This document shows, in pieces, positions 9,001-27,258 of a stretch of 64,000 nucleotides of DNA (position 1 is the stretch's first letter; the number at the start of each line of letters is the position of its first letter). The position numbers were made by a program, and so were the translations under genes. Below the pieces are notes generated by a model. The model searched no databases, was not told the origin of the DNA, and saw only the letters and a program-made list of their open reading frames with translations. The DNA is from an uncultured delta proteobacterium (GTDB lineage: Bacteria; Desulfobacterota; Desulfuromonadia; Geobacterales; DSM-12255), in the NCBI GenBank assembly GCA_963787125.1, contig CAWBBV010000016.1:21679-85678 (forward strand), in the 5' to 3' direction.

Positions 9001-9361
9001 CTTTGGATGGATCGATAAGGGGTAAAAGAGCATTGATGCTATTGCCGGTAAGACTCAGGACGCGGATTTGGTCAGCGAGGGTATCAACGGAAAGCGGCGT
9101 CTGCCCTTGCAGCCAGGAAGCGCCGGTGGTATAGGAGGTTCCGGCGGTCTGGTTCAGGAGTTTGAGAGTTTCCAGTGCGCCAACCGTGACAGCGGTGGTC
9201 TCAACCGGAGTGGTACTGGTCTCCCAGGTGCCATCAGGGTTTTGGGATGCGGAGAGGTAGCCAAGGCCGCTTGCTATCTGCGGTAGCTGGGCGTGAGCCG
9301 CCATGGTGAATATCAATGAGCAGAACATCGCCAAAATAATGAACAACTGCCGTCTATGCAT
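1..9361 (-). CDS. Giant secreted/cell-surface multidomain protein; N-terminal >3,100 codons, C-terminus beyond the left window edge
   Basis: Missing from the ORF track because it has no in-window stop. Minus-strand frame opens at ATG 9361..9359 (AGGAGG 5 nt upstream); no other minus ORF is listed in that frame down to nt 1. My translation: MHRRQLFIILAMFCSLIFTMAAHAQ (signal peptide). SQNPDGTW/SQNPDGGWG/HQNLDGGFG/AQSLNGSWN repeats, prenyltransferase/terpene-cyclase-like (~8530-9290). Many carboxypeptidase-regulatory-like beta-sandwich repeats (~6800-8500). Ig-like modules. A ConA/LamG-like segment (~4900-5460: FSDNFNDGVLDIDRWS...GKFRIKRVGSSLDLYFWNGSNW). RCC1-type propeller repeats (~540-1490: KDGSLWSWGWNASGQVGDG, KDGSLWAWGSNYSGRLGDG, SDGSLWTWGNNYSGQLGDG). 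Confidence 0.85.
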   Translation of the reverse strand, partial: MHRRQLFIILAMFCSLIFTMAAHAQLPQIASGLGYLSASQNPDGTWETSTTPVETTAVTVGALETLKLLNQTAGTSYTTGASWLQGQTPLSVDTLADQIRVLSLTGNSINALLPLIDPSKGAWGGDEGYFVNSLDTSLALQALKATNFSDITIINNALAYLTSSQNPDGGWGFSVGDDSNIYLTAIVSATLQQFPQMISIATAVNRATTYLLAHQNLDGGFGTAYETALAFIALVGNGQTQDLPLQNAINFLTGAQSLNGSWNDDPYATALAIKAIYLFENRPAPPPAPPSAGKITGTLLDTITRQGVNGVAVVLENNPVINTVTDASGNFTLADVPPGAQKIVFTLSGYLSASASATSIADTSVSLGIVAITSAYTTGTISGTILDPSGKPLPEVAIAVSGAWSGNALTGADGAFSFSYVTPGDVTITATKTGYLSFSGTGRVYARTTLAISPRLSATPSTITTGTIIGRVVGDLWGLPIDHLLGEQGVRVTISGGAFVDPNPDDGGKFTFEGLAPNTYQVTVGMSGFISQTFRLVITPGVTTDLGTIRLVMSANTITLTGMVTDSLTRLPITAAEIMVVGSNLTARTDFAGTYVVADIKEMGFTVKIAASGYVGRTIILKQPGGKAAMWTQQLDVALTPLETKGSLSGIVVDAVSGQPLAGVALTTIADPAVSVTTDSSGIFTFAALPKGVQQVTISLSGYSLRTLTTAILPGMVNNAGSIPLSSNPLPATIRGTVTDGMTNLPFADAVILARGGGDNQTASTSEGVYSLDNVTPGLVTVTAATARAGYFPASFTASLEPGGILIFSPTLFNNLSPTVSVAVQTDKTVYSKGETINISAALQNPQSIELAATLRLEVIDPNGMTVYDTSSPANLAADGSLTLNQSFPLPLSALGGNYTVTANMYDATGIWIGSATQSFGVAVSRITVNPLLPAAFSSGPNSISFNLANSGTLPIASGNLTVTLKDPDGQSVATAEQPFSLNVGESKTLSTTITVPPLKFGTYTLDYSQSDETRNGMATSIALPNTLAIDATFDSNSHRVRSTAGLTLRLNNTGRFNLDAGTSVTVTVPDANMSMTETLSSAPAVGSANGSTFLYRVQIREYFTSGEHNVIATVTLPSNSSATKGTKLVIFEAVLTLMPLPGKYNAGDTINHVISNSGGVDSPLELSLRLYDAKGMPVAAKNDSVTVMAGGSLSPALVIPAGAVDGSYNLVINFKDLTTGKEETVTHPLTISGVKGSLTVQTGKQNYLTTEGINSLSSITNSGIALQDGNLHLQVTSATGSNKQQTWTSQADFQQGTRNGVDTIETVDAVTLLAFSDNFNDGVLDIDRWSLGSAPNGPLPMEENGYFLLDLPWSTGGWNGTSATTRAPLTGDFDAMVDYNIVSPWQPASNNHPAGMMVSVGGWSARIDVWGSSPTYGVIDSYGQYRNTGPVLLNGKFRIKRVGSSLDLYFWNGSNWDNMMSYGGEPISGPAYLSLLNFGPTGNSNVQYDNFLVTTQTYPDSGTLNLKYDSAANSETWDKLTFNGDMPNGTAMKFRTRTAETEADLAEATWSSYLTASGSQITSPKGRWIEVEGTLSTTDRAVTPVLRDITVSREHKPGDIFWQTDIPVNLAQGVLADPNNLIGAIGQIGKYYLQGTLTANTGQAFATAEYPFYVVQGDTLFSINPDRKMYKPGETVTISGEVTNLATIEAANLSLTVKARVFAVSENLLQDTFSIPAGSSHPFKVTTIAGTDGLVNLTATIIQSAATLASVADYYEVVSPKVTATLNGPESAGSDPFTLTLTLVNSSRIAAVVSVANSVNSIVETVIIPAGQTKTLQYQQQITANKINTFNISGDLALQLTKSVVYTAPKQVAKVNVKAVTDKFVYDANKPVAVAATVTCLDVGLNVESLTAKVLISNSSGEVFFADRFILPTLDAGRSYTFSRYWNSGSHPEGAYYVRLEVEAGGVVLATSEEYFYIRSSAYTRTELAGTIAPTINSVYQSVDEVFAVTLVNNGNEHMERFIVVQAINPDTYEVMAQSTRLVTFSQQGTFSGNINLPTTSLNERNYLAALRISVPADGWYYDPLRDTAPPLALTRFNVMATPPPSLLLSTLANGAVTNNQTLNIAGNATSMFDLDKSIIINGIQVPVNFDSSFSHALLLQEGSNDVTVTVLDALGHKVTETRTIIFDQAAPVLTITAPADNSNSATPLISITGTVTEGTTVQVKLGENVQIAEMSGSVFTVALSLLPGWNTIEITATDLTGKQNNAKRTLFFDAQKPSLAITDPGQDILTGKNIIKGTVDPQSVAGINIYVNGWLYTPQVVDGAFEQILYFPVGGENGYEKRDYAVYVSATNAVGEEITSVQRNVIYDITAPAVAIDTVISPTNQNRQTITGTRDSGAMITVNCATAFVGKVIYRSATTWSVVVSGFNANGNDITVTAVNAAGNSGNATASIVYDIISPTGSITINSGAEITGVTTVQLTLNASDDTGVTRMKFSTDRSNWTFPEEYSSARLWTFASGDGMKQLFVKYGDAAGNWSIEQSASISLTEILKVIITAPQSGFTSNAVPLLTFTANVGTVVVKVDGVVVAKSSGDYLDHLTDGMHTVRIEATDVAGNMGYAERSFVVDLTSPILVSPVISVSSYAHTVAVLKDGSLWSWGWNASGQVGDGTTEDKLSPVRIGTDVDWSEVIAGFVHTLALKKDGSLWAWGSNYSGRLGDGTTEDKLVPVKIGQDNDWRALAAGGNNSFALKKDGTLWGWGSNDYGTLGDETTEPKLVPSRIGTDSDWLAIAAGGDAYIVALKSDGSLWTWGNNYSGQLGDGTRESKFLPTKIGTDTDWQSITAGNDFTMAIKSNGTLWGWGTNESGQLGDVDPEGTLVPIQIGLDTNWNAVSAGWGRVIALKKDRTLWCWGGDYCGQQIDSMDQSGTAPVKSKVTNVSSLADIKGSSSLVIKDDGSLWGWGDSWSGLFADGITQFSEIPTVVPIVNGNGLFINNGATVTTSSAVLLSFAAVDISGVTEMQFSNDNDGWSAPEPYTNSKNWILSGEMGIKTVYARFKDAVGNWSQAYSNTIIADISIVTTPPGLLVNPGVTPTNLNFQTISGTTDAGAIVTIAVDPGTVAGPVSFTTPTTWSCSVTGLREGV

Positions 9362-9396: not shown

Positions 9397-9837
9397 TCAT
9401 TTACTTGTGGCTATTTCATTTACCCTACGTATTAAATCAGCTGCTTGTGAAATAAACTTTAATTCTATTCTATTGCTATCAAACTCAATAATAATACATC
9501 CACGTTTTGCATCTGTTATAGATATATTTGATAAATTAGATAACGGTATTATATTAATAATCCTATCCATTTTCATAAATGAGTCATATTTCGGCATATC
9601 AAGCTCAATTCTATCATTATATAATGTTATTGCTTGACTGGAACTTTTACATAATAAAAGTAGAAGTATTAGTAAAATAATAGATATAGCTATAAATAAC
9701 CATGCCATTAAATATATTTTACTTACATATAAAACTATTGAAATAGATGTAATTACACACCACGTGAAAGCTAGATATATCACAATATTAATCTTAGAAA
9801 ATGACTTATTGTAAAATAATATATTGCAATTATTCAT
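9397..9837 (-). CDS. Small AT-rich membrane protein (2 predicted TM helices + ~75-aa soluble tail); candidate cognate partner/immunity gene of paralogue A
   Basis: 146-aa ORF. Hydrophobic stretches IVIYLAFTWCVITSISIVLYV and WLFIAISIILLILLLLL. My hand count of a 60-nt sample (9421-9480) gives 30% GC. Removing the IS1380 element makes its ATG overlap the stop of paralogue A (ATGA). Confidence 0.7.
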   Translation of the reverse strand: MNNCNILFYNKSFSKINIVIYLAFTWCVITSISIVLYVSKIYLMAWLFIAISIILLILLLLLCKSSSQAITLYNDRIELDMPKYDSFMKMDRIINIIPLSNLSNISITDAKRGCIIIEFDSNRIELKFISQAADLIRRVNEIATSK

Positions 9838-9857
9838 ACTGTCTCCTCTCGTTTAAT

Positions 9858-11530
9858 CCCGAATCCGCAAACCTTTGCCGGACACATTCATACAGGGTGA
9901 TTTCGGAGGTATTTTTTTGAGTGAGACCCCATTGAGGGGAGTCGAAATCACAGTTTTCAGCAAATTTCAAAAAGTGACGAGCTATTTTCCTCTTCAGGCG
10001 GTGTTTTTGCCGAATTAGGGACGAACTGCCACCTTGATCTTGTTTTTTGCTCTTTGACAATCTTGTTTTCAGTGTTTCCTTTAGCCGGTTACCGGCTGGA
10101 GCCTGCTGATTCTCGCCTGTATTCTGTCAGGGCGAAGCTTCTCCAGCCACCAGCCGTTGACTTTTAGCAGGTTCTTGCGAGCATGATTGACCACGATTGC
10201 CGCACTACGCAGCAGATAATCCTGAATGGTCTTGATCCGCCGCCGCACTGGTGTTGCCTGACTGTCCGTCTCTATATCACCAGTTTCATCCCGCCACTGC
10301 TGGCCCAGCAAAATTAGCAGATTGTAGGCCATGGTTCCCAATGTAAGGAATACTTCGTTGACACTGAAGGTCTGGGAGGGAAACCGTTCCAGGTCCAGAT
10401 CGTGCTTAAGCTCTTTGTTTGCCTCCTCTGCCGCTCCACGTCCCCGATAGAGTTCGAATGCTCGCTGCGGGGTAACATCTTTGGGCAGGTTGGTGGCCAG
10501 TACGTGATAGCGGACATCATTGATCAGCAGTGGCTCCCCTTTTTCGTCTACAGACTTGATCTGAACGCAGAAGACGAAGCGGCGTGGAATCTTCCAGCCG
10601 CTTGGGGTGTACTCGAATTCTCCGTAGAACTCACCACCGAAGTCCGTGACTTTGAGGCTCATAACGTCTACATCGAGATTCTCGTTTACCACCCGGTCCA
10701 AAGCGCCACTGGTTCGGGCCTTGACCAGATAGTACGCCCCGGCATCTTCGCTGGCCTGGACAGTTTTGATGCTATAGAGCCCGGCATCGTAGCGAAAGAG
10801 GAGCTTGTTTCGATCTATCTTCTCAGGGAGCAGCTCTGCCGTTTCCCTGATAAAATCGTCAATCCGTTCGACAGCTTTCTCTCGTCCTGGCAACAGCCAG
10901 TGATTGATGCAGAACCGTTCGCGACCTACAACAGCAAATACGGGGGTATAGCAGAGTTTGCCGTTGTATGTGGTTTGAGCACCTTCTCGTTTGGGCGCAA
11001 ACTGCTCAAAAATACTTGGATCAATATCGCAAGGGATGTAACCTTCAGCTCCCGGTTCAGCAGTGATGGTTGCCTGGGAAACAATCTTTGCTCCGACCCG
11101 CTTGAGACCAGTGATCTGCTCTTTGCCATATTTTTCAAGATGCGTGGCAACAGCCCGTTCTTTTGGGAGTTTGTTAAAGCCAAGCGACTTCTTGAGCAGT
11201 TTTTCTTCCCGAGCGAGCCAGGCAAGATCAGTGTAACTAGTCCGGCGTAGGGAAATGTTTAGTAACAGCGGGATCAGATGTTCCTCTTCCCGGAAGCCGT
11301 AGTCGATCTTCTTGACCCGCACCTCGCTTCTGATTGCTCGAATCAAATCGAGACGGCGTATGAGGGTGGTGAGCAACTCCAATCCTGCTACGGAAGTTAG
11401 TGTCTGTCGGGCTGCTACATACTGGAAACCAAGATTGTCTTTCACCATTCGGGTGAACTCCTTCACTGCAATTATGTGAAGGATTATAGCATGTTACGTT
11501 ACATTAGCCCAATAGTTTTGCGGATTGGGG
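9858..11530 (-). mobile_element. IS1380-family insertion sequence (1,673 bp) with 5-bp TTAAT target duplication
   Basis: Terminal inverted repeats CCCGAATCCGCAAACCT (9858->) and CCCCAATCCGCAAAACT (11530<-) match 15/17. They are flanked by direct TTAAT at 9853-9857 and 11531-11535. Length, CC-starting IRs and a single ~455-aa DDE transposase fit IS1380-family characteristics. Confidence 0.8.
10081..11448 (-). CDS. IS1380/IS4-like DDE transposase
   Basis: ORF track 10081..11466 starts at GTG. ATG at 11448 (MVKDNLGF...) has GAAGGAG upstream. C-terminal ...YRGRGAAEEANKELKHDLDLERFPSQTFSVNEVFLTLGTMAYNL is the Y-(2)-R-(3)-E-(6)-K style signature region of IS4/IS1380-type DDE transposases. Confidence 0.85.
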   Translation of the reverse strand: MVKDNLGFQYVAARQTLTSVAGLELLTTLIRRLDLIRAIRSEVRVKKIDYGFREEEHLIPLLLNISLRRTSYTDLAWLAREEKLLKKSLGFNKLPKERAVATHLEKYGKEQITGLKRVGAKIVSQATITAEPGAEGYIPCDIDPSIFEQFAPKREGAQTTYNGKLCYTPVFAVVGRERFCINHWLLPGREKAVERIDDFIRETAELLPEKIDRNKLLFRYDAGLYSIKTVQASEDAGAYYLVKARTSGALDRVVNENLDVDVMSLKVTDFGGEFYGEFEYTPSGWKIPRRFVFCVQIKSVDEKGEPLLINDVRYHVLATNLPKDVTPQRAFELYRGRGAAEEANKELKHDLDLERFPSQTFSVNEVFLTLGTMAYNLLILLGQQWRDETGDIETDSQATPVRRRIKTIQDYLLRSAAIVVNHARKNLLKVNGWWLEKLRPDRIQARISRLQPVTG

Positions 11531-11910
11531 TTAATAAATTCAATCAATGCTATATTTATTAACATTTGACCAACTGTTAATAGTGCAACCAATAATATTC
11601 CAAGGCCAATGATGGCTAAGCCAAATGGTGTTGCAGCAATTAATGTAGTTAATGCAGTCCCCATATAACCTGATAAAATATAGCCTAATACACTTGTTCC
11701 ACCAGTCCCTAGTAGAGATGAAAATAAAGTTTTCCCAAGGTTAAAATCAGTGTTATTTATGAGTGAGTCTAATGTTGAAATTAGAAATGAAGACAACACT
11801 GTAACTACCAAAGCCGCTACGCCTAAACCTGACAATGCTAGCAGTACTGATATCAATGTAAATGCTCCCCATAAAAGGTCTTTCCCTAAATTAACCGCAC
11901 ACCCACTAGC
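11494..11910 (-). other. Variable C-terminal module CT-A (138 aa, multi-helix hydrophobic, Gly/Ala/Ser-rich)
   Basis: Similarity to paralogues B/C ends after GYMISGG. Sequence ASGCAVNLGKDLLWGAFTLISVLLALSGLGVAALVV...GLAIIGLGILLVALLTVG. My hand count of 11541-11600 gives 27% GC, against 58% for 13201-13260 in the conserved body. Confidence 0.75.
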
Positions 11911-14541
11911 CCCCCCGCTAATCATATACCCGCCAGCCCCAGTCTCCGGATTGGTAATGATATAACCACACCCATTCCACCCATTGAAGTTGATGTTGGT
12001 CTTGGAAACAGTAACAACTTTTCCGGCATTGACGGCATTGGCGATGTCGTCCTTTGTTTGCTGGTCTACCTGCAACTGCGGCATTACTGTAGCAATATTT
12101 GACTGGTTGATTGTATAGATCGGTATCCCCTGGTCATTGGCAATCTTGAGCGCCTTGACCGTGCTGATTCCTTGCACTGAGTTACTTGGCGTGGAGAAGA
12201 GCTTCTCCGGCACATTGTGCTCCAGCGCCGAGGAAGTCATGCCGCTGGAGAGCATATACTGCTTGGCGGTCTCGCTGTTGCCGTCTTTTGCCTTTACTAC
12301 CTGCATCAGATAATCAGCATCCATATTGAGTCCGCCGGAACTGATATAGCGCGGTATTCCCCAAAGACACATTACTTTGAGCTTGGTGGCGAAGATGGTT
12401 TCTGACGGTACGGTGATGGCGTTGACGTTCATGGTTTTTGCGGCAATGTAGTTCATGGTGCCGAGTTCGGCATGATAGGCCATGGCGGTGGTGTAGAGGA
12501 GATCACCGATCAGATCATCTTTGGTCATGCCGGCGAAGTCGTTGTTCTGCAGTTTTGCTTTGGTAGCTTCCAGTTTTGCTTTGAGCCCGGTTAACTGCTC
12601 GGCGCTGATTCGCCCCAGGTTGAGCCCGATTGCCTGGTACACCCCGGCGTCAATGTAGTTGGTTATCTGGCTTGAGCCGTAAGCCGGGTCGCTGAAGGTC
12701 ATGGTGGAGATGTTGGTGCCGCCAAGGCCTACCGGCGCTCCGGTGGCCACTACCTGACCGTCAATCCTGAGTTCCGGTTTGACGTTGATCAGATACGCCG
12801 GTAGTTGGCTGGGCAGTTCGCTTGGCTGTATGGGGGTGCCGTCTGCATGCGGGCTTGGCAGGTAGGAATTGATGACTGCTTCATCCTGGGCGGTTGCCGG
12901 ACTGTAGCTGAGGGTAATCTTTTTGCCTGCCAGTTCTGCGAGGCTTTTGGTTATGCTCAGTGAGTTGTCCACCGGTGCCGGTGCTTCGGGATCAATGAAG
13001 GTGTTGGATGCTTCGTTCTCTACCCTGAAGGAGAGCTTGTGCCGCAAGCTGTCTGGGATGCTTGCAAACGTGCTCCCCTTGACGGCGGTGCGGTACGGCA
13101 GGGTACCGAGGAGATGGCGGTATTCTTTTTTGATGATCTCTTTTTTGCCGAGGACGTCGCCGACAGTGGCGTTGGCGTGGTTCTGCTGGATGTAGCTCTG
13201 TACCCGTGCCTGGTAGTCTTGCATGGTCTGCTGGGTGAGGATGGAGTTGATGCCGGTGACGTAGCCTTGAGTTTCGTTGATAGTGGCGGTGGCCTTGATC
13301 TGGTCGAGGAACGCTTGAGCGTCGAAGGGGACTGCTGTCTTGATGTCGATGCCCTGGGTGAAGTTGTACTGCTTGTAGCTCGGATCAAGAGGTATCCAGG
13401 TGTCACCCTTGCCGCTTATATGCTTTGCGCCACGGGAGGGGATGTAGTTGATGAAAGCTTCGACCGAGACATGTTCAAAACGGGCAGCAACGATCTTGCC
13501 GCCGCTAACCAGTCCCTTGGTGGGAATGCCGCCGCTGGACATGAAATCGAGGGCGGACAGTGGGTCGGTGAAGCCTCCGGCCCAGTTCATGACTTTATCA
13601 ATGGGGAGTTCTACTGTGCCGGTGACATAGCGGGCATTGATCCCGGCAGCTCGCAGCAGAGCGATGAGGAGGGAACTTGTATCAAAGGAGTTGCCCTGCC
13701 TGGTGAGCAGGGTCATCTGCGCCCCCTGGATGGAGCCCCAGGTGGGGACGAACTCGACGTTGTTCCGTACCCACTCGTAAATCTTTACCGGATTATTCCC
13801 CAGCTCCAGAGCCTTGGCCTTTATTTCGGGGGTGAGCTGGACTTCTATGTTTTCTGCCAGATCATCGGCAGGCAGCAGGCCGGCAACTGAGCCGTTGGCG
13901 GCAACCATGATCCGCTTGGCGCTCTTCCAGGCATGTTTGTCTTTTTTGAAATCCTTGTCGAAGTCTTCTTTCTTCAGCCGCGGTTCGCGTTTTTGAGCTT
14001 TGGGCTGGCGGTGAGGGAGGTTGTTCGGGTCGAGCTTCTGGTGGCGGGAGGGGGCTTTGGCCCGCTCAAGATGCTGGCGGGTCTTGTCAATGGCAGCTTG
14101 CAGCTCGGCATCGTTCTTTGCCGTTGCCGCCCGCTCAAGGTTCCCTTTCAGTTCAGTCAGGTTGTCATCGTAATGTTTGACGAACTTCTGATGCCGCGCC
14201 AAGATCTCGGGCGACATGCCAGAAGCCTTCAGTTTCTTCTCAGTGGCGGCGAGTTCGCTGCGGATGGCGGTGTCATGGGCGTCCAGCTCCGCTCTGGCAG
14301 CGCTCAGCCGCTGTTTTTTGTGATCATGGCCGGTTTTGGGATCTTGGAGATCGGCAGTCAGCTCCTCAGTAAGCTTGGCGAAGCGCTCTTCCGCCCCCTC
14401 GCTCTTCCTGGTCGGAGTTTCCTGGTTCCCCTTTTTAACGGCATCCACCGCCCCGTGGGCAAGGCTAAAGACACCACCTGATGTCCAGGTGAAGAATGAC
14501 AGTACAACTGCGGCAATGACTCTTGAGTACTTGCGAAACAT
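11494..14541 (-). CDS. Paralogue A: exported transglutaminase-fold protein with variable hydrophobic C-terminal module (last ~12 codons supplied by IS1380)
   Basis: 1015 aa. Signal peptide MFRKYSRVIAAVVLSFFTWTSGGVFSLAHG. K/E-rich coiled coil. Transglutaminase-like core GNSFDTSSLLIALLRAAGINARYVTG...FEHVSVEAFINY...WIPLDPS. Body ends NFNGWNGCGYIITNPETGAGGYMISGG. RBS GGAGA before ATG 14541. Confidence 0.9.
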   Translation of the reverse strand: MFRKYSRVIAAVVLSFFTWTSGGVFSLAHGAVDAVKKGNQETPTRKSEGAEERFAKLTEELTADLQDPKTGHDHKKQRLSAARAELDAHDTAIRSELAATEKKLKASGMSPEILARHQKFVKHYDDNLTELKGNLERAATAKNDAELQAAIDKTRQHLERAKAPSRHQKLDPNNLPHRQPKAQKREPRLKKEDFDKDFKKDKHAWKSAKRIMVAANGSVAGLLPADDLAENIEVQLTPEIKAKALELGNNPVKIYEWVRNNVEFVPTWGSIQGAQMTLLTRQGNSFDTSSLLIALLRAAGINARYVTGTVELPIDKVMNWAGGFTDPLSALDFMSSGGIPTKGLVSGGKIVAARFEHVSVEAFINYIPSRGAKHISGKGDTWIPLDPSYKQYNFTQGIDIKTAVPFDAQAFLDQIKATATINETQGYVTGINSILTQQTMQDYQARVQSYIQQNHANATVGDVLGKKEIIKKEYRHLLGTLPYRTAVKGSTFASIPDSLRHKLSFRVENEASNTFIDPEAPAPVDNSLSITKSLAELAGKKITLSYSPATAQDEAVINSYLPSPHADGTPIQPSELPSQLPAYLINVKPELRIDGQVVATGAPVGLGGTNISTMTFSDPAYGSSQITNYIDAGVYQAIGLNLGRISAEQLTGLKAKLEATKAKLQNNDFAGMTKDDLIGDLLYTTAMAYHAELGTMNYIAAKTMNVNAITVPSETIFATKLKVMCLWGIPRYISSGGLNMDADYLMQVVKAKDGNSETAKQYMLSSGMTSSALEHNVPEKLFSTPSNSVQGISTVKALKIANDQGIPIYTINQSNIATVMPQLQVDQQTKDDIANAVNAGKVVTVSKTNINFNGWNGCGYIITNPETGAGGYMISGGASGCAVNLGKDLLWGAFTLISVLLALSGLGVAALVVTVLSSFLISTLDSLINNTDFNLGKTLFSSLLGTGGTSVLGYILSGYMGTALTTLIAATPFGLAIIGLGILLVALLTVGQMLINIALIEFINPNPQNYWANVT

Positions 14542-14799
14542 TTATGTCTCCAAAATTACCGTAATTGATTTCCAGAAGTCGGGGCTCAGATCCGTCGGGC
14601 AATCGCCAGGAGCCTTAATCTTGAGAGAAGCGAGAATCTGCCCTTCTTCGGGATCGGTGAAGTCAATATCGTCACCCATCTCGACAAAACAATCCGTATC
14701 TTCCGGCAACCTGATCATTTGCAGCAGAGCATAACGGACCTGATAGAGATAGCCGAGGGCCTGTTTGCCTGCGGAGAAATTGTCGGTTGTGTCAGCCAT
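14542..14799 (-). pseudogene. 85-codon fragment resembling the N-terminus of DUF4297/Cap4-type dsDNA-nuclease (defence-effector) proteins; apparently truncated
   Basis: MADTTDNFSAGKQALGYLYQVRYALLQM...VEMGDDIDF...TDLSPDFWKSI resembles the G-(F/Y)-x-Y-Q ... E-x-x-D-D-I ... W-K N-terminal pattern of that family (recognised from memory, not searched). The ORF stops (TAA) directly abutting the ATG of paralogue A, at about a third or less of normal family length. Confidence 0.4.
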
Positions 14800-14904
14800 G
14801 AGATATCACCTTTAAATTCAAAGAAATGATAGTCCATGGTTATTGACCCTCCTAAAGAACATATGGCCGTTTCTCCTTTCTCACCAATGTAGACCAGAAT
14901 AAAT

Positions 14905-15333
14905 TTAATTGGTTACCAACCAAAAAAGCCCAACAATGTTAGTTGCGATTATTATTATTATTATTTGCCAACCATAAACCCCTGTTTTAAGAGTTGAAAT
15001 TCTAGGGCATGACTTCGAGTAAATTATATCTAAAGGCTCTTTCTTTAATTTCTTATAAAGAGCATCATGTTCAAGTTCATCAATTGTATTATAAATTGGA
15101 TTCATAAAACTTATCCTGGTTCCAATGTGTTTATCACTATCCACCGTGTACTCATATTTGATATTAACTGAGACAAAACGTGCCTTTTGCACTTTCAATT
15201 CAATTATATTCCCTGTAGCATGAGGCCAATTTTTTGAAGTTAAGCCTAAATATACAACTAATAATAAATAACTAGTCGAGCAAATCATAATAAGCATAAG
15301 CAGCACTGAAAATGCATCCATTTTGCACCTCAC
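14905..15333 (-). CDS. Small AT-rich membrane protein, DUF3592-like (TM - beta domain - TM); candidate partner/immunity gene of paralogue B
   Basis: 142 aa. N-terminal TM FSVLLMLIMICSTSYLLLVVYLGL, then WPHATGNIIELKVQK...VNIKYEYTVDSDKHIGTRISF (pattern typical of DUF3592), then C-terminal TM WQIIIIIIATNIVGLFWLV. Lies 65 nt downstream of paralogue B. Confidence 0.7.
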   Translation of the reverse strand: MRCKMDAFSVLLMLIMICSTSYLLLVVYLGLTSKNWPHATGNIIELKVQKARFVSVNIKYEYTVDSDKHIGTRISFMNPIYNTIDELEHDALYKKLKKEPLDIIYSKSCPRISTLKTGVYGWQIIIIIIATNIVGLFWLVTN

Positions 15334-15398
15334 ACAAAAGTCTAATTTAAAATTTAGATCATAATTTATGGCGAGTATTTATATAGAGTTATCTATAA

Positions 15399-15758
15399 TC
15401 ATACTATTTGTCTTTTTATTCCAAACCTATTAATTGCATAGAGCGCTACACGCAAATCGAGATAAGCAGCTAATGCAATCATAATGTATAAAGCTATTGC
15501 TCCTGCTGGTGCTAATATCAAAGCCGAGCTAAGAGTCACTTGTATTACGAAATTCGCAAAAATGGCACTCCAATTATGATCAATCGACAAACCTTCAGCT
15601 CCATCGACAATTCCTGATCCTATTAGACTTATAGCTGTTGCAAGAAAAGTAGTTATTGCAACTCCACCAATTTCACCGATCATCAACAATAAACCTATTT
15701 CTGGCCCAAAAGTTAAAACTAGCATGAATAATACAGACCACATCGCAATTATTAAGTA
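15399..15758 (-). other. Variable C-terminal module CT-B (119 aa, multi-helix hydrophobic)
   Basis: Identity with paralogue C ends after GYMISGGSNGG. Then YLIIAMWSVLFMLVLTFGPEIGLLLMIGEIGGVAITTFLATAISLIGSGIV...ALILAPAGAIALYIMIALAAYL; visibly AT-rich. Confidence 0.75.
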
Positions 15759-17450
15759 TCCACCATTCGACCCCCCACTAATCATGTACCCACCAGCCCC
15801 GGTATCCGGGTTAGTGATAATATAACCACACCCAATCCAGCCATTGAAGTTGATGTTGGTCTTGGAAACAGTAACAACCTTCCCTGCGTTGACGGCGTTT
15901 AGAATATCGTCCTTCACCTGCTGATCGACCTCCAACTGCCACATTACAGTTCCGATGTTCGCCTGATTAACCGTGTAGATCGGTATCCCCTGGTCATTAG
16001 CAATTTTTAGCGCCTTGACCGTGCTGATCCCTTCGGCTTTGTTGTCCGGTGTGGAGAAGAGCTGTTCCGGGACGCTGTGCTCCAGCGCCGAGGAAGTCAT
16101 GCCGCTGGAGAGCATATACTGCTTGGCGGTCTCGCTGTTGCCGTCTTTTGCCTTTACTACCTGCATCAGATAATCAGCATCCATGTTGAGTCCGCCGGAA
16201 CTGATATAGCGCGGTATTCCCCAGAGACACATTACCTTGAGCTTGGTGGCGAAGATGGTTTCTGACGGTACGGTGATGGCGTTGACGTTCATGGTTTTTG
16301 CCGTGATGTAGTTCATGGTGCCGAGTTCTGCATGATAGGCCATGGCGGTGGTGTAGAGGAGGTCACCGATCAGATCATCTTTGGTCATGCCGGCGAAGTC
16401 GTTGTTCTGCAGTTTTGCTTTGGTAGCTTCCAGTTTTGCTTTGAGCCCGGTTAACTGCTCGGCGCTGATTCGCCCTAGATTGAGGCCGATGGCCTGATAG
16501 ACCCCGGCGTCAATGTAGTTGGTGATCTGGCTTGAGCCGTAGGCAGGGTCGCTGAAGGTCATGGTGGAGATGTTGGTGCCGCCCAGACCTACCGGTGCTC
16601 CGGTGGCTACTACCTGCCCGTCAATTCTGAGTTCGGGTTTGACGTTGATGAGGTATGCCGGGAGCTGGCTGGGCAGTTCGCTTGGCTGTATGGGGGTGCC
16701 GTCGGCATGCGGGCTTGGCAGATAGGCGTTGATGATAGCTTCGTCCTGAGGGGTGGCCGGGGAGTAGCTTAAGGTTATCTTCTTGCCTGCCAGTTCTGCG
16801 AGGCTTTTGGTTATGCTCAGTGTGTTGTCCACCGGTGACGGTGCATCAGGATCGACGAAGGTGTTTGAGGCTTCGTTCTCTACCCTGAAGGAGAGCTTGT
16901 GCCGCAAGCTGTCGGGGATGGTGGTGAATGTTGCCCCCTTGACAGCGGTGCGGTACGGCAATGTGCCGAGAAGATGGCGGTACTCTTTTTTGATGATCTC
17001 TTTCTTGCCAAGAACATCGCCGACAGTGGCATTGGCGTGGTTCTGCTGGATATAGCTCTGTACCCGTGCCTGGTAGTCCTGCATGGTCTGCTGGGTGAGG
17101 ATGGAGTTGATGCCGGTGACGTACCCTTGTGTTTCATCAATAGTGGCGCTGGCCTTGATCTGATCAAGGAACCCCTGGGCGTCGAAGGGGACTGCTGTCT
17201 TGATGTCGATTCCCTGGGTAAAGTTGTACTGCTTGTAGCTCGGATCAAGAGGTATCCAGGTGTCACCCTTGCCGTTTACATGCTTTGCTCCACGGGAGGG
17301 GATGTAGTTGATGAAGGCTTCGACCGAGACATGCTCAAAGCGGGCAGCAACGATCTTGCCTCCGGCAACCAGACCTTTGGTGTGAAGTGGTTGCGCTTTA
17401 TGAGACATGTGTGTAAGCAATGAACCTCCCTATTTCAAAAGGAGAGTTCA

Positions 17451-17759
17451 ATGCAACAACATCGTACACGTCACAGCGCAGCTTTTAAGGCCAAGGTCGC
17501 TTTGGCCGCCTTATCAGAGTCAAAGACTCTGGCAGAGCTTGCAACCGAGTACCAGGTTCACCCGACCCAGATCACCCGTTGGAAGCAGGATCTGATTGCA
17601 AATGCTTCTGACCTTTTTGGCAAGGGCAAAAAGAAAGAAGTCAACCATGAGGGCGAAGTGGCCGAGCTTCACCGCCTGATCGGCAAGCTCAAGGTTGAGA
17701 ATGATTTTTTGTCACATCTGCCCGGGCTGAACTTGGCCGGGCGCAGAAACAACAAGTGA
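17451..17759 (+). CDS. IS3-family transposase OrfA (HTH)
   Basis: 102 aa; HSAAFKAKVALAALSESKTLAELATEYQVHPTQITRWKQDL is a helix-turn-helix followed by a leucine-zipper-like LHRLIGKLKVEND. Confidence 0.9.
   Translation: MQQHRTRHSAAFKAKVALAALSESKTLAELATEYQVHPTQITRWKQDLIANASDLFGKGKKKEVNHEGEVAELHRLIGKLKVENDFLSHLPGLNLAGRRNNK
17705..17711 (+). promoter_or_regulatory. Candidate -1 programmed ribosomal frameshift heptamer T-TTT-TTG
   Basis: In the orfA frame the codons read gaT TTT TTG (D-F-L), an X-XXY-YYZ slippery motif. Shifting -1 here reads on without a stop into the orfB frame (FFVTSARAELGRAQKQQVIATGHP...). Confidence 0.6.
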
Positions 17760-18592
17760 TCGCCACCGGTCATCCTGAAGTTTCTGTTGAACGCCGCTGC
17801 CAGCTTCTGGGTCTGCCTCGTTCCAGCTATTACCGTGGCCCTGCTTCCGGTCTTCGTTCCGGTGACCTGGAAATGATGCAGCGGATCGACAAACTCTACA
17901 TGGAGCAGCCCTGGATGGGGAGCCGCTCACTGGCCAACCACCTCACGACACCTGAAGCACCCTTGGGACGAGATCGTGCCCGTCGCTTGATGCTCATCAT
18001 GGGTATTGAATCCCTGGCTCCTCAGCCGGGCACCAGCAAGCGGCAACCGAAGCATCCGGTCTATCCCTATCTGCTGCGGGGAATGACCATTGACAAGCCC
18101 AATCAGGTCTGGGCGACTGATATCACCTACATCCCCATGGCACGGGGATTCATGTACCTGATAGCGATCATGGACTGGGCCACCAGAAAGGTTCTGTCCT
18201 GGCGTCTGTCCAATACGCTGGATACCCGATTCTGCGTCGAGGCGCTCAAAGAAGCTCTGTTCAAATACGGTGCCCCGGAGATCTTCAACACCGACCAGGG
18301 CTGCCAGTTTACCAGCGAAGCATTCACGTCAGTGCTCAAAACCTGGAACATCAAAATCAGCATGGACGGCAAAGGTCGTTTCAGGGACAACATCTTCGTC
18401 GAACGGCTCTGGCGCACGCTGAAGTATGAGAGAATCTACCTGAACGTTTATGAAACGGGAACCGAACTTTCCAAAGACATGACATACTGGTTCAACTGGT
18501 ACAACGTAACCAGAAAACATACATCTCTTGACAAACTGACACCGGATGAGGCTTATTTCCAAGGACTTGAAAAACTGAAACTGGCAGCCTGA
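17756..18592 (+). CDS. IS3-family transposase OrfB (DDE/rve integrase core); probably made as an OrfAB fusion
   Basis: 278 aa. WATDITYIPM..., NTDQGCQFTS..., ERLWRTLKYE match the DDE(35)E rve catalytic regions. It lies in the -1 frame relative to orfA. Confidence 0.9.
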   Translation: MIATGHPEVSVERRCQLLGLPRSSYYRGPASGLRSGDLEMMQRIDKLYMEQPWMGSRSLANHLTTPEAPLGRDRARRLMLIMGIESLAPQPGTSKRQPKHPVYPYLLRGMTIDKPNQVWATDITYIPMARGFMYLIAIMDWATRKVLSWRLSNTLDTRFCVEALKEALFKYGAPEIFNTDQGCQFTSEAFTSVLKTWNIKISMDGKGRFRDNIFVERLWRTLKYERIYLNVYETGTELSKDMTYWFNWYNVTRKHTSLDKLTPDEAYFQGLEKLKLAA

Positions 18593-19781
18593 AGCCAGAA
18601 AACCACAACAACCAAGGGACATTGCTTATTTCACCCTTCAGGCTGTCTCACTAAGCCCGGCCACCTCAGTGGGAATGCCACCGCTGGACATGAAATCGAG
18701 GGCGGACAGTGGGTCGGTGAAGCCTCCGGCCAAGTTCATGACTTTATCAATGGGGAGTTCTACTGTGCCGGTAACATAGCGGGCATTGATCCCGGCAGCT
18801 CTGAGCAGGGCAATGAGGAGGGAACTTGTGTCAAATGAGTTCCCCTGTCTGGTCAAGAGCGTCATCTGCGCCCCCTGGATGGAGCCCCAGGTGGGGACAA
18901 ACTCGACGTTGTTACGCACCCACTCGTAGATCTTTACCGGATTGTTCCCCAGCTCCAGAGCTTTGGCCTTTATTTCGGGGGTGAGCTGTACTTCTATGTT
19001 TTCTACGAGATCATCGGCAGCCAGTAGGCCGGCAACTGAGCCGTTGGCGGCAACCATGATCCGCTTGGCGCTCTTCCAGGCATGTTTGTCTTTTTTGAAA
19101 TCCTTGTCGAAGTCTTCTTTCTTCAGCCGCGGTTCGCGTTTTTGAGCTTTGGGCTGGCGGTGAGGGAGGTTGTTCGGGTCGAGCTTATGATGGCGGGAGG
19201 GGGCCTTGACCTTTGCCAGGTGCTGACGGGTCTTTTCAAACTCAGCCTCTACATCGGTTTTGCTTTTCGCTTTCTCAACACGATCAATGTTCCCCTTCAG
19301 CTCGGCAAGGTTGTCGTCGTAGTGTTTGACGAACTTTTGGTGACGGGTCAGGATCTCTGGCGGCAGTTTGGCGTTCTTGAGCTTCTTTTCGGTGGCAGCA
19401 AACTCGCTGCGGATGTCGGCGTCAAGGGTGTCTAGCTCAATTTTGGCCGCTAGCAGCTTGTCCCGTTTGGCTCCATGAGCCAGTTTTGAATCGGCCAGTG
19501 TCTCCCGCAACTCCTCAGTGAGTTTGGCCAGCTTCTCTTCCGCTCCTTCGGCCTTTTGCGCCGGAACTGCGGTCTTGGCCTTTTTCGCACCATCAACCGC
19601 TGCATGGGCAGCGCTGAAAACTCCGCCGGATGTCCAGGTGAAGATGAAGAGAACCAGTGTGGCAGTTATTTTTGTGAAGCTATGGGGCATTTTTATCCCA
19701 TCTGCCATCTGAATTTATCTGCTAAGGTAATGTAAAGTCAAGTTGATGCTATTTCTGTAAAAACAAATTATTTATCAGCAG

Positions 19782-20372
19782 TTAGGATATTTCTTTGTAT
19801 AGTACACCATGCCTATTTAATACATCTCTTATCGATTGAACGTCAGCTTCATTTAAATGATGTCCTGTAATAGCGAATACTGAAATTCCATAGTTATTTA
19901 CACATCTGGGTATTATTCCTTTTGTCCGAATGTATAAATAGAATTTTTTTCTTTCATCGCTACCAATTTTCAATAATGATTGGAGCTCATATATGGAATA
20001 AAATTCAATATCAGCCCATTTCTCAGCTATTAATCTGTATATTGGTACTCTAGCGAGAAATTTATTTGGATATAGGGCAATTCCATTGTTTGTGATTATA
20101 AGCTTCATATTTCTTGAATAATTAATATAATATGCTGGCAGCATAACAATAAGTAATATTAACAGTTCAATAACAACCAAACTGATTATACTAAATCTGA
20201 TTATCAATAAATGTGAATATAAAGCATCATAAGTAAATACTAGCAAAACAATAACATTTAGTAAGACTTCTTTGTATGTTATGTATTTGCTTGCCTTTGG
20301 TTTATAAATTGAATCAAATTTACAACATATATCTGCACTTACAATATATTCGTATTTATTTTGTGTTTTCAT
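19782..20372 (-). CDS. Small AT-rich membrane protein (2 TM + ~100-aa C-terminal domain); candidate partner/immunity gene of paralogue C
   Basis: 196 aa. TM stretches LLNVIVLLVFTYDALYSHLLII and FSIISLVVIELLILLIVMLPAYY. The ATG is 7 nt after the stop of paralogue C, with AGGA overlapping that stop (tAGGAtaattATG). Confidence 0.7.
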   Translation of the reverse strand: MKTQNKYEYIVSADICCKFDSIYKPKASKYITYKEVLLNVIVLLVFTYDALYSHLLIIRFSIISLVVIELLILLIVMLPAYYINYSRNMKLIITNNGIALYPNKFLARVPIYRLIAEKWADIEFYSIYELQSLLKIGSDERKKFYLYIRTKGIIPRCVNNYGISVFAITGHHLNEADVQSIRDVLNRHGVLYKEIS

Positions 20373-20379
20373 AATTATC

Positions 20380-20760
20380 CTATAAAAAGAAATATGCTAT
20401 TAAATCAACAAAATATGCACAATAAGCAACAAGGTATTGCACAAGCTGTATTTCAACTGATTGCGGTACTCCTCCACTAAAAGGACTAGGCATGCCTCTT
20501 AGTAAAAATCCTAACGCTATCTGACCTATAATATCCATAATTGCCCCAGATCCTGTAATAATAGTCAAATCAGTCAGGCCATAACTTCTTCCAAATACTG
20601 TTTGTATAGTATTTGCAATTACCACTTGAATAACTGTCGTCAATATAGGAACCATAACTATTCCAAGAGGCGTTGTGAATGTCAAACCAAGTGCAATTGA
20701 TAATAGCAATATCGAAAAGTATGATACCCACATTGCAGATGCGTATGGAAATAATAAATC
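20380..20760 (-). other. Variable C-terminal module CT-C (126 aa, multi-helix hydrophobic)
   Basis: After GYMISGGSNGG: DLLFPYASAMWVSYFSILLLSIALGLTFTTPLGIVMVPILTTVIQVVIA...GAIMDIIGQIALGFLL...LVQYLVAYCAYFVDLIAYFFL. No alignment to CT-A or CT-B; AT-rich. Confidence 0.75.
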
Positions 20761-23403
20761 TCCTCCATTCGACCCCCCACTGATCATATACCCACCAGCC
20801 CCGGTCTCCGGGTTAGTGATAATATACCCACACCCAATCCAGCCATTGAAGTTGATGTTGGTCTTGGAGACGGTAACAACCTTTCCGGCATTGACTGCAT
20901 TAGCGATGTCGTCTTTTGTCTGCTGGTCTAGCTGTAGTTCCCAATATAATGTTCCAAAGTTTTCTTTATTGACCGTGTAGATCGGTATCCCCTGGTCGTT
21001 GGCAATCTTGAGCGCCTTGACGGTGCTAATGGCCTGTGCCGGTGCGTCGGGAGTGGAGAAGAGCTGCTCCGGAACGCTGTGCTCCAGCGCTGATGAGGTC
21101 ATGCCGCTGGAGAGCATGTACTGCCTGGCTGTCTCGCTGTTGCCGTCTTTTGCCTTTACCACTTGCATCAGATAATCAGCATCCATGTTGAGTCCGCCGG
21201 AAGCGATATAGCGCGGTATTCCCCAGAGACACATTACTTTGAGCTTGGTGGCAAAGATGGTTTCTGACGGTACGGTGATGGCGTTGACGTTCATGGTTTT
21301 TGCCGTGATGTAGTTCATGGTGCCGAGTTCTGCATGATAGGCCATGGCGGTGGTGTAGAGGAGGTCACCTATCAGATCATCTTTGGTCATGCCGGCAAAG
21401 TCGTTGTTCTGCAGTTTTGCTTTGGTAGCTTCCAGTTTTGCTTTGAGCCCGGTTAACTGCTCGGCGCTGATTCGTCCCAGGTTGAGGCCGATGGCCTGGT
21501 ACACTCCGGCGTCAATGTAGTTGGTGATCTGGCTTGAGCCGTAAGCCGGGTCAGAGAAGGTCATGGTGGAGATGTTGGTGCCGCCCAGGCCTACCTGTGC
21601 TCCGGTGGCTACTACCTGGCCATCAATTCTGAGTTCCGGCTTTACGTTGATGAGGTAGGCCGGGAGCTGGCTGGGGAGTTCGCTTGGTTGTATGGGGGTG
21701 CCGTCGGCATGCGGGCTTGGCAGATAGGCGTTGATGATAGCTTCGTCCTGAGGGGTGGCCGGGGAGTAGCTTAAGGTTATCTTCTTGCCTGCCAGTTCTG
21801 CGAGGCTTTTGGTTATGCTCAGTGTGTTGTCCACCGGTGACGGTGCATCAGGATCGACGAAGGTGTTTGAGGCTTCGTTCTCTACCCTGAAGGAGAGCTT
21901 GTGCCGCAAGCTGTCGGGGATGGTGGTGAATGTTGCCCCCTTGACAGCGGTGCGGTACGGCAATGTGCCGAGAAGATGGCGGTACTCTTTTTTGATGATC
22001 TCTTTCTTGCCAAGAACATCGCCGACAGTGGCATTGGCGTGGTTCTGCTGGATGTAGCTCTGCACCCGTGCCTGATAGTCCTGCATGGTCTGCTGGGTGA
22101 GGATGGAGTTGATGCCGGTGACGTACCCTTGTGTTTCATCAATAGTGGCGCTGGCCTTGATCTGATCAAGGAACCCCTGGGCGTCGAAGGGGACTGCTGT
22201 CTTGATGTCGATTCCCTGGGTAAAGTTGTACTGCTTGTAGCTCGGATCAAGAGGTATCCAGGTGTCACCCTTGCCGTTTACATGCTTTGCTCCACGGGAG
22301 GGGATGTAGTTGATGAAGGCTTCGACCGAGACATGCTCAAAGCGGGCAGCAACGATCTTGCCTCCGGCAACCAGACCTTTGGTGGGAATGCCGCCACTGG
22401 ACATGAAGTCGAGGGCGGACAATGGGTCGGTGAAGCCTCCGGTCCAGTTCATGATTTTGTCAATGGGGAGTTCTACTGTGCCGGTGACATAACGGGCATT
22501 GATCCCGGCAGCCCTAAGCAGGGCAATGAGGAGGGAACTTGTATCAAAGGAGTTGCCCTGCCTGGTCAGGAGCGTCATCTGCGCCCCCTGGATGGAACCC
22601 CAGGTGGGGACGAATTCGATGTTATTCCTCACCCACTCGTAAATCTTGACCGGATTATTCCCCAGCTCCAGTGCCTTGGCCCTGATCTCCGGGGTGAGCT
22701 GTACTTCTATGGTTTCGGCCAGATCATCGGCAGGAAGCAGTCCGGCAACTGAGCCATTTGCAGCGACCATGATCCGCTTGGCGCTCTTCCAGGCATGCTT
22801 GTTCTTCTTGAGATCCTTGTCGAACTCTTCTTTCTTGAGCCGTGGTTCGCGCTTTAGGGCTTTGGGCTGCCGATGGGGAAGATTGTTCGGATCCAGTTTA
22901 TTGTGATGGGACGGAGCTTTGACCTTTGCCAGGTGCTGGCGAGTCTTCTCAATCTCAGTCTCGACTTCATCCTTGCCTTTCGCTTTCTCAACACGGTCAA
23001 TGTTCCCCTTCAGCTCGGCAAGGTTGTCGTCGTAGTGTTTGACGAACTTCTGGTGACGGGTCAGGATCTCAGACGGGAGTTTGGCGTTCTTGAGCTTCTT
23101 CTCGGTTTCAGCAAACTGCTTGCGGATGTCGGCGTCAAGGGTGTCCAGCTCACCCTTGCGGGACGTCAGCCGCTGTTTCTTGTGCTCATGACTCGTTTTC
23201 GAGTCGAGAAGTTCTGTTGTCAGTTCCTCAGTCAGCTTCGCAAACCGTTCCTCAGCCCCTTCGCTCTTCTTTGCCGGAGCCTCGGTCTTGGCCTTCTTCA
23301 CGGCAGTTGTTGCTGCATGAGCAACGCTGAACACCCCCCCTGAGGTCCAGGTGAAGAAAGACAATACAACTGCGGCGATTATCCTTGAGTGTTTGCGAAA
23401 CAT
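20380..23403 (-). CDS. Paralogue C: intact exported transglutaminase-fold protein with variable hydrophobic C-terminal module
   Basis: ORF track 20380..23424. I prefer ATG 23403 (MFRKHSRIIAAVVLSFFTWTSGG, colinear with paralogue A, GGAGGA 6 nt upstream). Same architecture as A; near-identical to the 3' part of B over ~1.6 kb. Confidence 0.9.
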   Translation of the reverse strand: MFRKHSRIIAAVVLSFFTWTSGGVFSVAHAATTAVKKAKTEAPAKKSEGAEERFAKLTEELTTELLDSKTSHEHKKQRLTSRKGELDTLDADIRKQFAETEKKLKNAKLPSEILTRHQKFVKHYDDNLAELKGNIDRVEKAKGKDEVETEIEKTRQHLAKVKAPSHHNKLDPNNLPHRQPKALKREPRLKKEEFDKDLKKNKHAWKSAKRIMVAANGSVAGLLPADDLAETIEVQLTPEIRAKALELGNNPVKIYEWVRNNIEFVPTWGSIQGAQMTLLTRQGNSFDTSSLLIALLRAAGINARYVTGTVELPIDKIMNWTGGFTDPLSALDFMSSGGIPTKGLVAGGKIVAARFEHVSVEAFINYIPSRGAKHVNGKGDTWIPLDPSYKQYNFTQGIDIKTAVPFDAQGFLDQIKASATIDETQGYVTGINSILTQQTMQDYQARVQSYIQQNHANATVGDVLGKKEIIKKEYRHLLGTLPYRTAVKGATFTTIPDSLRHKLSFRVENEASNTFVDPDAPSPVDNTLSITKSLAELAGKKITLSYSPATPQDEAIINAYLPSPHADGTPIQPSELPSQLPAYLINVKPELRIDGQVVATGAQVGLGGTNISTMTFSDPAYGSSQITNYIDAGVYQAIGLNLGRISAEQLTGLKAKLEATKAKLQNNDFAGMTKDDLIGDLLYTTAMAYHAELGTMNYITAKTMNVNAITVPSETIFATKLKVMCLWGIPRYIASGGLNMDADYLMQVVKAKDGNSETARQYMLSSGMTSSALEHSVPEQLFSTPDAPAQAISTVKALKIANDQGIPIYTVNKENFGTLYWELQLDQQTKDDIANAVNAGKVVTVSKTNINFNGWIGCGYIITNPETGAGGYMISGGSNGGDLLFPYASAMWVSYFSILLLSIALGLTFTTPLGIVMVPILTTVIQVVIANTIQTVFGRSYGLTDLTIITGSGAIMDIIGQIALGFLLRGMPSPFSGGVPQSVEIQLVQYLVAYCAYFVDLIAYFFL

Positions 23404-23467
23404 TCTGTTCCTCCATGAAATCAAAATTCAGTTTTACCGCCATTACAACCCCCTATATTGTAGACAC

Positions 23468-27156: not shown

Positions 27157-27158
27157 GG

Positions 27159-27258
27159 TTACACCGGTCCGAATCTGGGTGGGCGAACCAGCCCGGCAGC
27201 GGCCAAAGACTCCTCGGCGGTCAGTCCGCGTTCACTGCCCTTAATGGCGATTTTGGAC
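27159..27258 (-). CDS. tnsC: tnsC exon 2 (C-terminal 33 codons + stop)
   Basis: Encodes (L)SKIAIKGSERGLTAEESLAAAGLVRPPRFGPV*. It is in frame with exon 1 once the 1,895-nt intron is removed, and the stop is 2 nt before the tnsD ATG. Confidence 0.7.

Follow-up and report, generated by a model that had tools for sequence, protein, structure and literature searches.

A 64,000-nt stretch of DNA from an uncultured delta proteobacterium (assembly GCA_963787125.1, contig CAWBBV010000016.1, positions 21,679 to 85,678), here called the window, contains a tandem array of three paralogous genes for large predicted secreted proteins, A, B and C, each accompanied by a small open reading frame (ORF) for a membrane-type protein (Table 1). 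An earlier note on this DNA had proposed a polymorphic-toxin/immunity-like system here, and the three paralogues and three small ORFs were all found at the coordinates it gave. The shared layout that it described, with signal peptide, coiled coil, K/E-rich stretch, transglutaminase-like core and body, was also present in all three. In paralogue C the signal peptide is followed by the coiled coil (about amino acids (aa) 50-165), a K/E-rich linker, a transglutaminase domain of predicted inactivity (about aa 240-400) and the body (aa 400-877); position 23424 is an in-frame TTG upstream of its ATG. Transglut_core (about aa 240-390, E about 1e-14) was the only Pfam match in each of A, B and C, and the three small ORFs had no match in Pfam. 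NCBIfam and PADLOC gave no name for the large protein or for the small ORFs.

Table 1. Positions of the array and of neighbouring features in the window.
Feature	Position	Strand	Remarks
Giant secreted protein, 5' part	1-9361	minus	>3120 codons, runs off window start
Putative immunity gene of A	9397-9837	minus	146 aa, 2 transmembrane (TM) segments, GC 0.24
Insertion sequence (IS) in A 3' end	9858-11530	minus	DDE_Tnp_1_4 transposase 10081-11466; 17-nt inverted repeats
Paralogue A as now read	11494-14541	minus	1015 aa; native part 11531-14541; body end 11911
Putative immunity gene of B	14905-15333	minus	142 aa, TM at both ends, GC 0.32, starts 65 nt past B stop
Paralogue B, ORF calls	15399-17420 + 18638-19708	minus	IS-split
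Paralogue B, 3' part	15399-17382	minus	body to 15771; tail 15402-15770 (123 aa, four hydrophobic segments)
IS3-family element in B	17383-18668	plus	orfA 17451-17759, orfB 17756-18592; 3-bp GTG target duplication
Paralogue B, 5' part	18669-19708	minus	N-terminus to mid-transglutaminase region, cut by IS
Putative immunity gene of C	19782-20372	minus	196 aa, 2 TM, GC 0.27, 7 nt past C stop
Paralogue C	20380-23403	minus	1007 aa from ATG; sole intact copy
Paralogue C tail	20383-20772	minus	130 aa, hydrophobic
550-aa ORF	23690-25342	minus	between tnsD and paralogue C
Tn7-like transposition module	25339-33675	minus	TnsA 32836-33675, TnsB 30692-32839, TnsC 29009-30685, TnsD/TniQ 25339-27156
Group II intron with reverse transcriptase (RT)/maturase	~27260-29055	minus	Rfam RF02001, RF01998, RF00029; RT/maturase ORF 27338-28849
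Three 16-nt direct repeats	33745-33800	plus	20-nt spacing, between tnsA and glmS 3' end (33834-35669)

The DNA of A, B and C is 84-94% identical (blastn) from the ATG to the codon after ...TGAGGYMISGG, and homology is then lost abruptly. Among the three paralogues the breakpoints fall at about 11911 in A, 15771 in B and 20773 in C, the junction ...GCGYIITNPETGAGGYMISGG of C ending at 20773. A drop in G+C content (GC) coincides with the junction, from 0.54-0.55 in the bodies to 0.35-0.37 in the tails and 0.24-0.32 in the small ORFs. Neither the tails nor the small ORFs show mutual similarity (E<=1e-3), and hydrophobic segments number two to four per tail and two per small ORF. This agrees with the description of the small genes in the earlier note as AT-rich, membrane-type and unrelated to one another. 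The three unalignable C-termini that it reported were also recovered, with native lengths of 132 aa (A), 123 aa (B) and 130 aa (C) in place of its 119-138 aa. Its statement that each paralogue is followed by a small membrane gene is correct for B and C; A is now separated from its small ORF by an IS.

That IS is bounded by a 5-bp target duplication, TTAAT (9853-9857 and 11531-11535), and encodes the final 12 residues of A as now read (11494-11530 region). Removing it in silico gives a 1009-aa protein with the end ...IEFIKREETV; the TGA of this frame and the ATG of the ORF at 9397-9837 then overlap (ATGA). The restored overlap implies that A and the 146-aa ORF were originally coupled, like many homologous pairs, and indicates that their translation would be coupled. 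In B, the split noted earlier is due to an IS3-type element with the ends TGAAGTGG...CCACCTCA, and exact excision of this element regains a 1006-aa ORF that reads ...SSGGIPTKGLVAGG..., the same as C. The split of B and the interrupted 3' end of A could be taken to mean that the array consists of decaying duplicated pseudogenes, a functionless relic carried by a transposon in this genome. We regard this as highly improbable: paralogue C and the three small ORFs are undamaged, A and B read through some 1,000 codons without interruption apart from the IS, excision restores both frames exactly, and the argument speaks to the condition of two copies but not to what kind of system this is.

Alignment of the transglutaminase domain with the structure 3isr, a transglutaminase-like protease, placed the catalytic GVCRD of 3isr opposite GNSFD in the scaffold. 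The nucleophile position holds Ser in the window copies, and among matched homologues it holds Ala in 65, Ser in 6 and Cys in none, while the His and Asp of the transglutaminase are conserved in the family. With the catalytic Cys replaced by Ser or Ala, the domain is predicted to be inactive as a thiol enzyme. An AlphaFold model of full-length C (39 sequences) was poor, with a predicted local distance difference test score (pLDDT) of 64 and a predicted template modelling score (pTM) of 0.32, and a Foldseek search with it retrieved the transglutaminase domain only. A separate model of the body, aa 400-890 (115 sequences), was confident (pLDDT 88, pTM 0.76). Foldseek searches with this 490-aa model against the PDB and viral predicted structures gave no significant match (best E 0.04-0.1, TM-score <=0.11). 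The body ends in a glycine-rich junction motif, ...GW.GCGYII..P.TGAGAYMISGG in the family, whose Cys (GCGY) is nearly invariant. An autoproteolytic cysteine site at this junction was considered and rejected, as several members carry Val or Thr in place of the Cys, and cysteine-dependent self-cleavage is unlikely. The predicted signal peptide, residues 1-35 in A, B and C, was found to be conserved throughout the family, with F17, W19, G23, A28 and A30 nearly invariant (...FFTWTSGGVF..AHA). A plain Sec signal would not usually be so conserved, and the peptide may have a specific role in targeting or retention.

A protein search returned 974 homologues, nearly all of about 1,000 aa, from sources that include Geotalea daltonii, Desulfuromonas versatilis and metagenome-assembled genomes of Desulfuromonadaceae and Geobacteraceae. 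They are conserved up to the junction motif and thereafter continue into divergent tails of about 95-170 aa. Scanning species-representative genomes gave 75 loci, distributed over Geobacterales/Desulfuromonadales, Nitrospirota (including Thermodesulfovibrionales and magnetotactic forms), Syntrophia and a few Beta- and Gammaproteobacteria. The 162 full-length members represent 61 tail classes. Tails could be aligned in 3-10% of pairs at 60-90% body identity, the figure being 10% at 80-90%, and 78% of relatives' tails have two or more hydrophobic segments. A conserved body with a hypervariable C-terminus, first proposed from the three window copies, is thus a property of the homologues at large, and the conserved N-terminal region with variable C-terminal modules by which polymorphic toxins are recognised is present in this family. 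A single C-terminus in all homologues with no linked gene, which according to the earlier note would speak against its reading, is clearly not what the relatives show.

Several relatives carry tails with recognisable soluble domains. One matched NLPC_P60 with 40 bits (cut-off 23), and others showed CHAP/NLPC_P60, an SLT-like lysozyme motif below the cut-off, or a caspase-like sequence. A prokaryotic phospholipase A2 tail scored 27.8 bits, under the cut-off of 29.4, and contains the motif CxxHDxCY. The partners encoded next to the enzymatic tails carry PD40/DPPIV-N propeller signatures and begin with a signal-like segment. Judged from these domains, the recognisable tails of the relatives are predicted to be envelope-directed. 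The family leader was also found on a larger protein, a 2756-aa ORF of Geomonas anaerohicana Red421 (L033, 7929-16199), where about the first 860 aa, leader and body, precede a series of Ig-like domains, a long array of RHS/YD repeats, the motif DPxGL and an unassigned module at the C-terminus. The closest 120 homologues of this leader contained no further RHS fusion, all being about 1,000 aa long and free of RHS-family Pfam annotation; the L033 fusion is a single case.

A separate class of tails, 206-231 aa long, was observed in four loci (L002 1316-4561, L014, L044 11313-14594 and L061). They have at least one membrane helix and, behind it, a soluble domain that had no Pfam match and in which the motif W..LRHYT is conserved. 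The proteins encoded downstream are non-membrane, helical-repeat proteins of 211-386 aa. These tails may be a cytoplasm-acting toxin class with an entry helix of their own.

A same-strand ORF lies within 120 nt downstream of 78 of the 86 tail-bearing ORFs examined, with a median gap of 2.5 nt and with overlap in 35 cases. Co-variation between tail and downstream ORF, which had been suggested as the check to make in homologues, was assessed over 3003 locus pairs. Tails were similar in 65 of these, partners in 32 and both in 19 (Fisher odds ratio 93, p 4e-25). The kind of partner follows the kind of tail as well: multi-TM tails have multi-TM partners in 52 of 59 cases, and partners of 12 of the 19 non-TM tails carry an N-terminal signal-like segment. 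Two of the window pairs recur as units in other contigs. The partner of C aligns with the ORF after P0045, which bears a C-type tail, at 58% identity over 191 aa (E 3e-88), and it also matches the partner at L008; the partner of B aligns with the ORF after P0016, which bears a B-type tail, at 47% identity over 123 aa (E 1e-44). Cross-comparisons between the B and C pairs gave no match.

Orphan cassettes, made up of a new tail with a small ORF behind it and no more than the final 70-220 aa of the body in front, were found downstream of full genes at L027, L030, L036, L057, L058 and L064. At several of these loci one or two such fragments follow the full gene and its partner; in the window, tandem full-length copies stand in the place of orphan cassettes. 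Two further marks of polymorphic toxins, a co-varying downstream gene of the immunity type and orphan cassettes, are both found in the family.

These data bear on the possibility that nothing in the array is toxic. The periplasmic body might be the functional part, for example as a structural or peptide-binding partner of the giant protein encoded next to the array, with the tails as interchangeable membrane anchors and the small proteins as assembly partners. The prevalence of tails with at least two hydrophobic segments, the high conservation and confident fold of the body, its synteny with a giant secreted protein and the window tails' want of a toxin-family match would all suit such an arrangement. 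It offers no reason, however, for 61 unalignable classes each with a private, co-varying partner, and soluble NlpC/P60, CHAP, lysozyme-like, phospholipase A2 and caspase-like domains would not be expected to replace anchors. The orphan cassettes and the strong compositional foreignness of the cassettes also argue against it, and we consider this explanation quite improbable.

Taking together the variable tails, the linked and co-varying partners, the recurrence of the B and C pairs, the orphan cassettes, the enzymatic tails and the RHS fusion, all of which support the polymorphic-toxin/immunity reading put forward earlier, we think it likely that A, B and C form a toxin/immunity array of the polymorphic kind and belong to a family not characterised before. 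In the mechanism that we propose, the large protein would be exported by Sec, and its scaffold would serve envelope trafficking or anchoring rather than catalysis. The C-terminal module would be the toxic part, acting on the envelope of competitors, that is, on the inner membrane, the cell wall or lipids. For the window tails, with their two to four hydrophobic helices, the most likely activity would be to enter the inner membrane from its periplasmic face and dissipate its barrier. The cognate 2-TM small protein would neutralise its own tail by binding it within the membrane, and other partners would bind in the periplasm. New specificities could arise when two bodies recombine homologously at their 3' ends, which would swap tail-plus-immunity cassettes; the low-GC cassettes of the window and the orphan cassettes of relatives can be read as traces of this swapping.

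A number of observations weigh against this interpretation. None of the window tails A, B and C matched a known toxin family in Pfam, and they are therefore called toxins solely by analogy with the enzymatic tails of relatives. Among 1.84 billion representatives tail C was confined to the present family, the search for it on other scaffolds yielding one fragment that belongs to this family and one spurious match to a repeat protein. A search with tail B by itself gave no hits, tail B included, probably owing to composition filtering. Dissimilar downstream ORFs occur despite similar tails, for example in L055/L056 and L038/L064. The small ORF of A has no cognate relatives, and its pair with the A tail has no conserved counterpart. 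A and B are damaged by IS and C alone is intact. Besides the giant protein, the 75 loci have no associated gene for a secretion system or an outer-membrane partner. Finally, a Sec-exported protein with 3-5 strongly hydrophobic C-terminal helices should be anchored in the inner membrane of its producer.

In the case of A, it is solely the restored ATGA overlap that supports the pair. The likeness of its tail to P0007 is confined to the first ~70 residues. A counterpart of its small ORF was sought beside the A-like tails P0007 and P0028 and rejected, as unrelated ORFs of 67 aa and 81 aa stand there (L002 11042-11245 and L078 3821-4066). Both encode a single TM helix together with a zinc-ribbon-like motif, CxxC...C. 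The likely origin of A-like tails with unrelated partners is a recombination event within the tail that brought in a different protector.

The expected arrest of the tail in the producer's own inner membrane is the reason why two alternatives were kept: the anchor function considered above and a suicide or lysis function acting in cis. According to the latter, the protein would remain in the producer, fixed in the inner membrane by its tail, with its periplasmic body sensing a trigger such as phage or envelope damage; the tail, as pore, peptidoglycan hydrolase or phospholipase, would then kill or lyse that cell, the small protein being a cis inhibitor or antitoxin. Stop-transfer logic predicts just this location for hydrophobic tails, the localisation of the partners fits the topology that each tail would have in the producer, the repertoire of membrane helices, phospholipase and peptidases resembles that of abortive-infection systems, and the cluster is carried on mobile elements. 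However, C, the three small ORFs and the 550-aa ORF next to C had no match among the 5027 defence-system models of PADLOC, and a private inhibitor that co-varies with the effector is not something that abortive infection normally requires. The orphan tail/partner cassettes and the tandem full copies bear the hallmarks of toxins diversifying between strains, the same leader is fused to RHS in L033, and the immunity-like genes diverge faster than the tails. A cis-acting envelope effector is thus, in our view, unlikely.

Inactive transglutaminase domains have been described before in polymorphic toxins. Zhang et al. (2012, Biol Direct 7:18, PMC3482391) reported them after the signal peptide of Sec-dependent polymorphic toxins, followed by RHS repeats, and proposed an anchoring or peptide-binding role for them. 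Their paper mentions neither the present family nor Geobacter (PMC3482391). The earlier statement that no described family uses this scaffold is correct in part, given this description of the leader. The same paper lists the MAFB-N/DUF1020 class in the 'T2SS/Sec-dependent' row of its table (PMC3482391). Beyond it, our full-text literature search found no paper on the present family. The family shares with the inactive-transglutaminase class a signal peptide, a transglutaminase without its catalytic residue, a variable C-terminal module and a downstream partner gene, and L033 matches the described architecture exactly, from leader through Ig, RHS and DPxGL to the toxin. In contrast, Pfam detected no RHS repeats or DPxGL in A, B and C, L033 alone having the RHS part; a 490-aa body joins transglutaminase to tail through a junction motif of its own in the window proteins, and the present tails are mostly membrane-helix bundles.

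Three other kinds of toxin system invite comparison. The MafB/MafI proteins of Neisseria combine a signal peptide and a conserved N-terminal domain with a polymorphic C-terminal toxin, mostly a nuclease, and an immunity gene immediately downstream; they have alternative 3' cassettes and are borne on islands. Signal peptide, conserved N-terminal part, polymorphic tail, downstream partner, alternative 3' cassettes and probable island carriage are all shared by the present family. Unlike MafB, A, B and C have no DUF1020 in Pfam, their scaffold is about three times larger, and the tails appear envelope-directed with membrane or periplasmic partners. Contact-dependent growth inhibition (CDI) systems, with CdiA-CT/CdiI, show a similar organisation of conserved body, sharp pre-toxin motif, variable tail, cognate small gene and orphan cassettes. 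The ionophore type of EC93 pairs a membrane-acting tail with an inner-membrane immunity protein, and a membrane tail is likewise paired with a membrane partner here. What sets the family apart from CDI is that no two-partner secretion (TPS) domain, FHA repeats or VENN motif was detected in the window proteins (Pfam), nor a CdiB gene among the recurrent neighbours at the 75 loci; export would be through Sec only.

Type VI secretion systems (T6SS) deliver envelope effectors with periplasmic or membrane immunity proteins, among them the pairs Tae/Tai, Tge/Tgi and Tle/Tli and the membrane-disrupting Tse4, Ssp6 and VasX. Their spectrum of activities is the same as that suggested by the present tails (NlpC/P60-type amidase, lysozyme-like, phospholipase and membrane-inserting helices). 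The window proteins differ in having Sec signal peptides, which T6SS effectors are not known to carry. They contain no PAAR, VgrG, MIX, FIX or Rhs-type domain, and no T6SS gene family recurs at the 75 loci. In agreement with the earlier note, none of the domains VENN, TPS, RHS, HINT, LXG and PAAR was detected by Pfam in the window proteins.

The only conserved neighbouring gene family at the 75 loci, besides the toxin family itself, is that of the giant secreted protein. In the window its ORF starts at 9361, directly after the small ORF of A and on the same strand. Its domains comprise a signal peptide, a squalene-cyclase/TED-like alpha-alpha toroid, six CarboxypepD_reg, MG2, Glucodextranase_B and Ig-like domains and an RCC1 propeller. 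The N-terminal toroid of the giant was found beside the toxin/partner array, on the same strand, in 42 of the 75 loci, many of the loci without it being short contigs, and it was also present at L076 and L078. It usually lies right behind the last partner gene, as in the window. From this synteny, the giant is predicted to be a conserved third component of the cluster, one that the earlier inventory of the array had overlooked. The 550-aa ORF on the other side had been considered as a conserved neighbour of the array and was rejected; the conserved neighbour in other loci is the giant ORF.

It is conceivable, if rather doubtful at present, that the signal peptide, coiled coil, inactive transglutaminase and novel-fold body, with the giant TED/MG2/CarboxypepD_reg protein, make up a self-contained delivery platform. 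Such a platform would hand membrane-inserting, wall-degrading or lipid-degrading toxins to diderm neighbours without the machineries of type 1 to type 9 secretion, CDI or Rhs, and would spread by Tn7-like and integrase-borne islands of the kinds described below. Interbacterial toxin systems are known almost entirely from a few tractable Proteobacteria, Bacteroidota and Firmicutes. If the toxin interpretation is right, organisms from dense electroactive or syntrophic aggregates, namely Geobacter-type metal reducers, Nitrospirota and syntrophs, would have a polymorphic arsenal of their own, with at least 61 tail classes aimed at the envelope. The structurally unassigned scaffold, with no recognisable secretion partner, raises the question of the route by which a Sec-exported, membrane-tailed protein would reach a neighbour. 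Unrelated hydrophobic tails with private 2-TM protectors would also form a collection of candidate membrane-permeabilising peptides with their specific inhibitors. We see the interest of the family in its unusual taxonomic spread, the scaffold fold without a match, the delivery puzzle, the conserved giant and the membrane-helix tail repertoire.

On its other side the array adjoins a Tn7-like transposition module. The gene order is glmU, glmS, TnsA, TnsB, TnsC, group II intron, TnsD/TniQ, 550-aa ORF and array, and the remaining window is ordinary chromosome. The 550-aa ORF had no match in Pfam, NCBIfam or PADLOC; it occupies the position of tnsE in Tn7. The three direct repeats between tnsA and glmS, GACCAAACTTTATTCA / GAGCAAACTATTTTAC / GAGCAAACTTTATTAC, are likely right-end binding sites of the transposase TnsB. 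No inverted copy of them occurs elsewhere in the window, so the left end would be over 33 kb away, past the start of the window. The earlier note had called the array cargo next to a Tn7-like module. TnsA, TnsB, TnsC, TnsD and glmS were confirmed and right-end repeats were added; the left end is not in the window, and we infer that the array, probably with the syntenic giant surface protein, rides as cargo of a Tn7-like element at glmS. Carriage of this kind would illustrate how such arsenals move between genomes. The group II intron lies between tnsC and tnsD, and its 5' part overlaps the 3' end of tnsC (stop 29009), so tnsC may need splicing for completeness.

A different mobile element was observed on the metagenomic contig L076. 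Its segment 1-3107 belongs to a cluster of toxin, 138-aa partner, NHL protein and a 2913-aa CarboxypepD_reg giant, and this cluster adjoins a phage-type integrase, AlpA and a Toprim/AAA_25 primase, unlike the Tn7-like surroundings of the array in the window.

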